In this document: positions 21,778-23,741 of the stretch, piece after piece
Numbering within the stretch: the stretch's first letter is position 1
Layout of the letters: each line of letters begins with the position of its first letter
Virus record (IMG/VR): IMGVR_UViG_3300034682_000426
Location: 1 to 45,452 of that record
DNA from: a virus
Taxonomy: Duplodnaviria > Caudoviricetes
Reading direction: 5' to 3' (one strand)
DNA: 45,452 nt
Program-made: the position numbers and the translations under genes
The notes under the pieces: generated by a model
What the model saw: the letters and a program-made list of their open reading frames with translations, nothing else
Told to the model about the DNA's origin: nothing
Database searches by the model: none

Positions 21778-23076
21778 TTAACCTCTTTGCCCAAGCGCGG
21801 CCCATGAGCCAAGTCCGTCAGCGCTGGTAATGTAGCCGTCCAGTGAGTAGCGCACGGCATCCCACAGATGGTTGTGCTTATCCACGACAACCGGCAGAAC
21901 TTCGCCGGTCATGCGGTCTGTTTTATAGGAGTACAGGCGCGCCTCATCGACCATGTGCTTGCAGCGCTCATGGATGATGATCTCCTCGAACCCTTTCAGG
22001 TAGGTGATGCCGTCCTCAACGCTTCCCGGCCATTTGGTAGCGCCATCGATAACGAAGCCCTGACGCGAGAGATAGCTAATGGTCTCTGGTCGGCTGCAGT
22101 CGCCGTGGATGGGCCATTTTCTGGAATCCGGGATGGAGTCATAGAACGATGCCATTTCGTCCAGTTCGACACCGACGCCATACGCCTCATACTCGATGTA
22201 CAGTCTGGTGCCGATTATGAAGCAGCGGACCAGAGTGGATGGGTCGTTCGCAAAGCCGAAGTCAGCGCCATAGAACAGGCGATCGGCTTCTTTCCACAGG
22301 TCGTCAGAGAACGCCTCAACCCGGTACTTACCGGAAAAGATGACAGCCTCACTGAGCGCCTTCGGCAGGCCAAGCCAGATATGCTCGTAGGCCTCAAAGT
22401 CGATGCGCTTGCAGTACTCCATCTCGTGCCGGAGCACGTCAGGAAAGAAGGCGTTATCGCAGTAGTTGACGCAGGTGATAATCGCCCCGCCATCCGGAGG
22501 GTCGGCACGGTGCCGCTCCATCATGGCGTAAGTCGGGTCGGTAGCTTCTCGCGGGTTGAATGACACCCACACTTCAGATTTATTGGCACGAACGGTCGGA
22601 CCGAGAATATCCCAGCTGTCCTGCGATACGGTCTGCGCCTCCTCCACCCAGCATATTTTGATGCCGTGCATCGACTTGATGCTCTGGATGTTGTTGCGCA
22701 GGCCTTTGAAGGTAAACCGCGTGCCGTTGCTGCCCTCTATCTCGTTGTTCTTGACCTTGTAGAAGTGCGCCAGGCCAAGCGAGTGGATCTCAGCGTCCAG
22801 CAGCGCCAGCACCGAATCGTTGATGGAGTTCTGGAACTCACGAGCGCAGAGGATGATCATCGGCTCGATAGCGCCCAACAATACCAGTGCGCGGGCAATC
22901 TCTACCGATTTGCCACCACCACGACCGCCATACGTCCAGCGCCAGCGGACAGAGCCTATCGGTGCGTCGTACAGCGTCCCGAGCACCCAGTCGCTACTGA
23001 ATGAGTACAGGACACCATCGATTATTGTTGGGCTGTCTGCTTTCCCTCGCGCAGCTTTTCCATGTGCGCCGTCCAC
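21778..23076 (-). CDS. terL: Terminase large subunit (PBSX/headful-type); true start uncertain
   Basis: Walker A GGRGGGKS, Walker B CWVEEAQ, SFNP, nuclease DFGF and HLWDAVRY motifs. Confidence 0.95.
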
Positions 23077-23729
23077 GCTTCAGGCGGACAGTTCGACGGC
23101 GTGACGATGCAGACCTTTCCGTAACTCAGCCCAGCCAGATCGACATTCACTTCTGTTTTGTTGCTCATGTCGATGCCGGTGAGCTGCGCTGCGTTCTTGA
23201 TGTTCGGGGCCACCTGCCCAAACTTCTCAGCATCAAGCGCGGCTTTTGCCGATTTGTAGGAGAGTTCAGCCAGGTCTTTCGCGTCGAATGATACGAGCAG
23301 CGCGGCATCCTGACGCAGTTCCCTGATGCGCCTGCGGATATCCGGGCGCTTGAACAGGATGGACGCCTGAGAGTCAGCGCGCGATGGCGAGTAGCCAGCG
23401 CATATCGCCGCCTCTTTCTGTGGCATGCCTCGTGCGATGTTCTGCGCAAATTGCTCATGCTGTGGCTTTAGGATGCCCGCGCTTTCCTGCGCAGTATCAC
23501 CGTCAGTCGATGAAGAGGCCTCAACCACAACAACATGTGGCATCTGGCTTTGCGCAGGTTTGCGCACTTCCTTCTGCGCAGTTTTTTGCGCAGCTGGCTT
23601 TTTAATGTACCTGCGCGCAGATGTGTAATTCAGTCCCTGCGCTTCGCACCACTCTTTCGGTGATATACCCGTTTTGGCATGCTCGGCGAGGAACTGGTCT
23701 TGCAGCGCTCCCCAGTCCGGTTTTGCCAT
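23022..23729 (-). CDS. terS: Terminase small subunit
   Basis: MAKPDW N-terminal HTH and a second HTH ([10 protein letters not shown]); GGAG RBS; upstream of TerL. Confidence 0.9.
23040..23046 (-). promoter_or_regulatory. Slippery heptamer G GGA AAG linking the terS frame to the terL frame (-1)
   Basis: terS codons GAG GGA AAG; the -1 frame GGG AAA GCA is the terL ORF. Confidence 0.6.
23443..23592. repeat. Array of six TGCGCA palindromes in terS (candidate pac/TerS-binding region)
   Basis: TGCGCA at 23443, 23488, 23551, 23561, 23575 and 23587. Confidence 0.5.
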
Positions 23730-23741
23730 TGGTCACTCCAT

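Follow-up and report, generated by a model that had tools for sequence, protein, structure and literature searches.

The stretch of DNA analysed here (45,452 nt; hereafter the window) has the appearance of a complete temperate myovirus provirus, as its annotation includes integrase, repressor, replication, lysis, terminase, portal, head, sheath, baseplate and fibre modules. The junction between the terminase genes terS and terL lies on the minus strand. Between the lysis cassette and terS are a Rha-like regulator (24748-24059, minus strand) and a short unannotated open reading frame (about 23923-23742, minus strand), and an endonuclease VII/HNH-like gene (13132-12497, minus strand), possibly a homing endonuclease, separates the tail sheath gene from the structural gene that follows. 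The principal features of the terminase pair are:

23736..23739, minus strand: terS ribosome-binding site GGAG (anti-Shine-Dalgarno duplex, -5.9 kcal/mol)
23022..23729, minus strand: terS, terminase small subunit, 235 aa, 25.7 kDa (PF03592, phrog_32222, phrog_51)
23040..23046, minus strand: slippery heptamer G_GGA_AAG, at which a -1 shift is predicted; relatives have G_GGA_AAR
21778..23046, minus strand: terL, read in the -1 frame onward from the heptamer (420 codons past the slip), with a PBSX/Sf6-gp2-like ATPase and an RNase H-like nuclease
22906..22929, minus strand: Walker A motif of TerL, always 117 nt after the start of the heptamer

TerS, which is encoded just upstream of terL, matched PF03592 with an E-value of 3.8e-8 (34.5 bits; gathering cut-off 26.1). 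Its C-terminal ~30 residues are specific to the clade of relatives that carry this junction, and its full C-terminal half was matched by one of the 150 profile hits listed. The GGAG upstream of terS is likely the only strong initiation site of the pair. TerL scored 161.5 bits against TIGR01547 (cut-off 105.05) and was also above the cut-offs of PF04466 and PF17288. By both sequence and fold, its closest relative was gp2 of Shigella phage Sf6 (PDB 4IDH, E 4e-55; Foldseek TM 0.77, 49% identity over the aligned part), with which it shares the ATPase fold, and the gene order terS-terL-portal is also that of Sf6 and the PBSX family. These matches, together with the ATPase and RNase H-like nuclease domains, place TerL in the PBSX (Sf6-like) family. 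One usual trait of that family, a separate start ~20-40 codons before Walker A, appears to be lacking in the clade. A TerL model built from a 59-row alignment reached a pLDDT of 87.7 and contained an N-terminal hairpin at residues 5-16, with residues 1-10 averaging 47, too low for argument; a model from a shallow 21-row alignment (pLDDT 35.8) was unusable. Prediction of a complex between the TerL ATPase domain and the last 56 TerS residues scored 0.02 (mark 0.32) and gave no answer.

Close to its end, terS reads GAG GGA AAG; five further sense codons then lead to its TAA stop. Thus, as an earlier note on this DNA had described, an in-frame G_GGA_AAG is present at 23046-23040: an X_XXY_YYZ heptamer in the zero frame of terS, from which the -1 frame encodes the conserved TerL domains. 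This frame is open from 23079 to 21778 (minus strand), with 422 codons open from the heptamer, and recomputing the predicted TerS-TerL fusion (230 + 420 = 650 aa, 72.5 kDa) reproduced the ~650-aa product proposed in the note. The note's reading of the start codons was also borne out. There is no ATG before Walker A, the first in-frame ATG being codon 63 (22860), and the two GTGs lack a Shine-Dalgarno (SD) sequence, with duplexes of +0.4 (23076) and -0.1 (22986) kcal/mol compared to -5.9 kcal/mol for the terS ATG. The slippery site of lambda gpG/gpGT is GGGAAAG.

Across the window, 22 in-frame X_XXY_YYZ heptamers (Y = A or T) occur in 11,859 codons, three of them of the G_GGA_AAR type. Besides the terS heptamer, only three tail-chaperone heptamers open a -1 frame longer than 66 codons. 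By simple arithmetic, the chance of finding a heptamer within the 18-codon overlap is ~3% for any such sequence and ~0.5% for the G_GGA_AAR type. At these values, the heptamer of a single window is only suggestive, and conservation has to carry the case.

The tail-chaperone heptamers are distinct from the terS/terL site. They overlap in frame at 11679-11667 (minus strand; G_GGA_AAT, A_AAT_TTT and T_TTT_TTG) within the tail assembly chaperone gene (12047-11622, minus strand) and give access to ~80 codons of -1 frame, which run up to the start of the tape-measure gene. They make up a second frameshift in this phage, one of the canonical G/GT type.

Conservation of the heptamer and its surroundings

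Viral contigs, GTDB genomes, metagenomes and two annotated records served as sources of relatives. A peptide motif of TerS, and not the heptamer itself, was used to anchor the junctions. The TerS of the clade was present in 193 of 343 loci, which reduced to 63 distinct junctions; we give counts per distinct junction because many loci were the same contig fetched twice. For codon conservation we used 57 intact loci, having dropped the six of 63 loci with a broken terL as well as three short loci. The hosts include Escherichia, Photorhabdus, Xenorhabdus, Serratia, Morganella, Pantoea and Providencia. Clade members occurred in 17 of 5426 complete E. coli genomes, and a search of plasmids returned no match.

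G_GGA_AAR was present in the same register in all 63 distinct junctions, although the loci have a mean pairwise nucleotide identity of 0.79 (minimum 0.70). The seventh base was always a purine (G in 43, A in 20). The TerS glycine codon was GGA in 63/63 junctions, and the preceding codon, which encodes Glu in 56, Ala in four and Thr in three, always kept its final G, such that both third positions within the heptamer were invariant. Among the 57 intact loci, the third base was fixed in none of the 16 other invariant Gly codons and in one of the 66 other four-fold columns. By these sequence comparisons, the heptamer is conserved beyond coding need.

Constraint on the flanking codons changes at the heptamer. 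Upstream, the variable positions are third positions of TerS codons; downstream, they are third positions of TerL codons. Stops in the TerL frame lie directly before the heptamer in five of the 63 junctions and three codons further upstream in 11, while TerL-frame codons 1-14 are free of stops in every junction. The TerS tail beyond the heptamer varies freely, and its stop occupies three positions, once immediately after the heptamer. This switch in constraint and this pattern of stops are as expected if the product reads TerS up to the heptamer and TerL thereafter. Thus, the alignment of homologues that the earlier note had proposed as a check retained the heptamer in 63/63 junctions and a fixed -1 geometry, and the start codon was not conserved, an outcome that favours the frameshift.

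The same junction is found in Providencia phage PSTCR3 (MW057855.1), a temperate myovirus that was one of 17 phages isolated from single plaques, according to the part of the report available (PMC8065852). As PSTCR3 was plaque-purified with this junction, the arrangement likely yields a working terminase.

Five loci (L099, L105, L110, L201 and L204) retain an intact terS and heptamer together with the initial ~22 codons of TerL, after which the frame jumps into unrelated DNA, with breakpoints just after the 3′ arm of the hairpin described below. Beyond the breakpoint, L204 resembles the C-terminus of a tail chaperone, and the other four appear tail-fibre-like by eye. These loci are probably deleted prophage remnants.

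Candidate stimulatory elements flank the heptamer:

23058..23061, minus strand: GGAA resembling an SD sequence, 11 nt upstream of the heptamer; many relatives have GGAG here, and across 63 junctions the median duplex is -3.3 kcal/mol
23028..23033, minus strand: 5′ arm of a candidate 3′ stimulatory stem in the consensus fold, 6 nt after the heptamer
22985..22990, minus strand: 3′ arm of the same stem in the consensus fold

In bacterial -1 frameshift cassettes, a 3′ stimulatory structure would be expected 5-9 nt after the heptamer. The consensus structure from RNAalifold contains a stem beginning 6 nt 3′ of the heptamer. All 63 junctions have canonical or wobble pairing at the five outer pairs of this stem, and the probability of the central stem pair exceeds 0.5 in 45. 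In 34 junctions, essentially the Val7 subgroup, the 60-nt segment folds at -22 to -30 kcal/mol with z < -2. Covariation is slight, with double changes in two of 20 pairs; the score was reached by 86 of 500 shuffles, so that it does not clearly exceed them, though it was better than that of all slid controls. The GCCCA/TGGGT pairing that the earlier note had put forward as a stimulator (23033-23029 with 22989-22985) corresponds to this stem and can form in all 63 junctions, but in the window, which belongs to the Thr7 subgroup, the conserved helix has an ensemble probability of 0.01 and the z-score is -0.3. Slippage may be less efficient at junctions of the window's type, or a different fold may serve there. 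A further pairing from the note, GTCCTG/CGGGAC, is part of the window's own minimum free energy structure but is absent from the consensus, and we rejected it as a conserved element. Upstream, the SD-like GGAR is a possible 5′ stimulator, although the pairing is weak and the sequence is also explained by the Met-Glu codons. SD-like stimulators of -1 shifts act at spacings of 9-14 nt, as stated in the accessible portion of PMC5009743.

Where translation of terL may begin

Two sites at which ribosomes could instead start on terL are:

23074..23076, minus strand: GTG chosen by ORF callers, two codons after an in-frame TGA, without an SD in the window and not conserved
23020..23025, minus strand: Ile8-Ile9 codons (ATA ATC), overlapping the terS stop, a rival non-AUG start

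The frame is intact to Walker A in 61 distinct junctions. Eighteen of these have no ATG, GTG or TTG at least 17 codons before Walker A; among the remaining 43, GTG or TTG is the only option in 37 and an ATG is present in six, at scattered positions. For comparison, three pattern scans of viral contigs, in which a GGRG Walker A had to be preceded by G_GGA_AAR, T6 or A6G, returned at least 359 loci, at least 280 of them confirmed as TerL, which gave 193 distinct non-clade genes and 23 clade members, with three dropped as too short. All 193 non-clade PBSX-type terL genes, which as controls were thus fetched by slippery-like patterns, have a canonical start of their own (168 ATG, 25 GTG/TTG), such that the scans contained no start-less terL outside the clade. 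In four outgroup junctions, unlike in the clade, terL begins at its own ATG overlapping the end of terS. Together, these counts indicate that terL in the clade probably lacks a conserved independent start. Two pairs of non-clade loci (L356/L452 and L288/L297) have a heptamer in register and the -1 geometry but also a plausible GTG start, and their heptamers probably arose by chance.

Of the 43 junctions that offer a candidate start, 11 have an SD-like duplex of -4 kcal/mol or stronger before the upstream GTG; among them are a subgroup containing L095-L112 and, in addition, L091, at -9.5 kcal/mol. Initiation at the upstream GTG may therefore also occur in some lineages. This measure discriminates weakly, as among 191 starts of the controls only 67 reached -4 kcal/mol. 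Existing annotations differ from one another: terL of PSTCR3 (L070 3181-4329, MW057855.1) is annotated to start after, and hence without, Walker A, and a RefSeq E. coli terL (L071 2744-3949, NZ_CP062811.1) is annotated from Val21, which would remove an invariant strand and Phe16, both shared with free TerLs. Both annotations are likely mis-started.

Since the terL frame starts at a conserved heptamer and has no conserved start codon, TerL is likely made as a fusion. We consider it highly probable that a -1 frameshift like that of lambda G/GT supplies TerL mainly as a TerS-TerL fusion beside an excess of free TerS. The main rival, which the earlier note did not include, is that a TerL of ~415 aa is initiated at a near-cognate AUA, AUC or AUU at Ile8/Ile9 by re-initiation at the terS stop, with the weakness of the start keeping TerL low. 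Both codons are Ile (ATH) in 63/63 junctions and the overlap with the terS stop is kept in 62, and the Met of free homologues falls at about the same column. However, ATA, ATC and ATT interchange there like ordinary Ile codons, the median anti-SD duplex is -2.1 kcal/mol, the codons lie inside a strong hairpin in 34 of the 63 junctions, and in one junction terS ends 15 nt earlier. Initiation at Ile8/Ile9 also leaves unexplained both the invariant heptamer ~20 nt upstream and the absence of TerL-frame stops in codons 3-7. We regard it as unlikely. A conventional start at a GTG or TTG (23076 in the window, or Val21), used in all lineages or in some of them, with the heptamer incidental or a back-up, would fit the 43 of 61 junctions that have some canonical start, the 11 with an SD-like site before the upstream GTG and the RefSeq choice of Val21. 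Such a start is very unlikely given the 18 junctions that have none, the window's two SD-less GTGs, the lack of positional conservation, and the loss of the invariant strand and Phe16 from a Val21 product.

The frame change could also occur in the RNA, by transcriptional slippage on an A-run, or the fusion could be merely a precursor that is cut to free TerL. At least four A's are present in 20 of the 63 junctions, and we found no in-frame fusion among the matches listed. But the other 43 junctions, including the window, have only three A's before the G; RNA polymerase is known to slip on runs far longer than three A's. The heptamer also keeps codon register, making this pair of explanations highly improbable. 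A sequencing error or pseudogene would account for the broken terL frame of six of 63 related loci. This reading has a negligible probability and is largely refuted by conservation across genera: the junction had no indel in contigs from four of four sequencing runs (one of which may be the window's own source), its geometry is the same in all relatives, variation in terL is dominated by synonymous changes, and the cultured phage PSTCR3 has the junction.

Origin, mechanism and significance of the predicted fusion

In a quick maximum-likelihood tree of 59 TerL ATPase domains, all 17 sampled clade members fell on one branch (SH-aLRT 100), with a stem of 0.92 changes per column and short internal branches. 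TerL residues around Walker A differ in the clade from those of all outgroups. The tree points to one derived origin, with fast change of TerL alongside the apparent gain of the frameshift. Because the junctions form one clade, the 63 junctions represent one origin and are not independent cases.

The earlier note had also suggested looking for TerS and TerL fused naturally in one frame, and none was found among the matches listed. No in-frame fusion near 650 aa occurred among the 120 TerL matches listed of 6340, and PF03592 was absent from the long TerL matches among the 120 listed of 150. Similarly, the clade TerS C-terminus was absent from 11 long TerS matches (three judged by sequence, the others by coverage), and the 150 profile matches listed included no fusion-size protein, the longest being 384 aa. 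The lack of an in-frame fusion among these matches gives no precedent for a working one, but it fits a need for excess free TerS. Among the matches listed, nearly all long PBSX TerL relatives (P0282-P0401, 579-1108 aa) contain intein/Hint domains. In P0121-P0131, the TerS N-terminus is joined to tape-measure, tail or head fragments; these are probably remnants of prophage deletions.

TerS rings consist of 8-12 subunits. In the frameshift model, ribosomes would load at the terS ribosome-binding site and most would end at TAA, giving free 235-aa TerS. A minority would undergo tandem slippage, in which tRNA-Gly exchanges GGA for GGG and tRNA-Lys exchanges AAR for AAA, and would then read terL. 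A 3′ stem 6 nt downstream, strong in the Val7 subgroup and weak in the window's Thr7 subgroup, may aid the slip. The slip efficiency may be a few to about 15%, which would give about one fusion per ring. The TerS moiety of the fusion would co-assemble into the TerS ring, from which the ATPase/nuclease would hang on a linker of ~35-40 residues, and the TerS:TerL ratio would be set at translation.

This proposal resembles lambda gpG/gpGT in that a shift-prone heptamer of the G_GGA_AAG type, a sequence highly shift-prone in E. coli, lies towards the 3′ end of an upstream gene with an abundant product, and the -1 frame lengthens a minority of that product into a fusion, by which a molar ratio is set; for lambda G:GT this ratio is 30:1 (PMC5009743, in the part available). 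It differs in its -1 product, the essential packaging ATPase/nuclease of 420 aa in place of a short chaperone tail, in its location at terS/terL and not between the major tail gene and the tape-measure gene, and in the 3′ stem that some of the clade have. An abundant upstream subunit, nucleic-acid-binding or structural, accompanied by a rarer -1 fusion bearing the enzyme, is also the logic of IS3-family OrfA/OrfAB and retroviral Gag/Gag-Pol (PMC7556043 and PMC5009743, as far as their available text goes). The proteins are unrelated, and the literature searched, to the extent its text was available, does not describe this logic for a phage packaging motor.

Recoding has been proposed in other terminase genes: UUA bypassing in Streptomyces phage Hau3 (PMC10732093) and, speculatively, a +1 frameshift in Staphylococcus prophage vB_G30_01 (PMC11512304). 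Unlike in the clade, both lie inside terL and restore one open reading frame, with neither a TerS-TerL fusion nor a conserved -1 heptamer in the available portions of these papers. More generally, where the accessible parts of PMC5009743, PMC10732093, PMC3025963, PMC11512304, PMC3711429, PMC8065852 and PMC7556043 bear on terminase recoding, it is internal to terL; the word "terminase" is absent from the main text of PMC3711429 as available. The earlier note knew of no recoding of the present kind in terminases, and a full-text literature search, with subscription journals mostly outside it, likewise found no description of a terS-terL frameshift fusion.

Judged on conservation at the sequence level, the -1 frameshift signal in this new gene context appears to be real, and if the fusion is made as predicted, it adds a new gene class to phage recoding. 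Public annotations of terL in the clade are likely wrong at the start. More tentatively, and on balance somewhat doubtfully, the pair could act as a one-gene terminase of the Gag/Gag-Pol kind, in which every TerL is a fusion built into a ring and the slip rate sets the number of motors per ring, and frameshift-fused terminases could have arisen repeatedly with differing slippery sites. Phage terminases are taught as two separately translated subunits. To our knowledge, the manner and ratio in which TerS acts on the TerL motor are unsettled, as is its retention during packaging. A natural covalent TerS-TerL, if confirmed, would make the engagement of TerS with the motor, and their ratio, testable.
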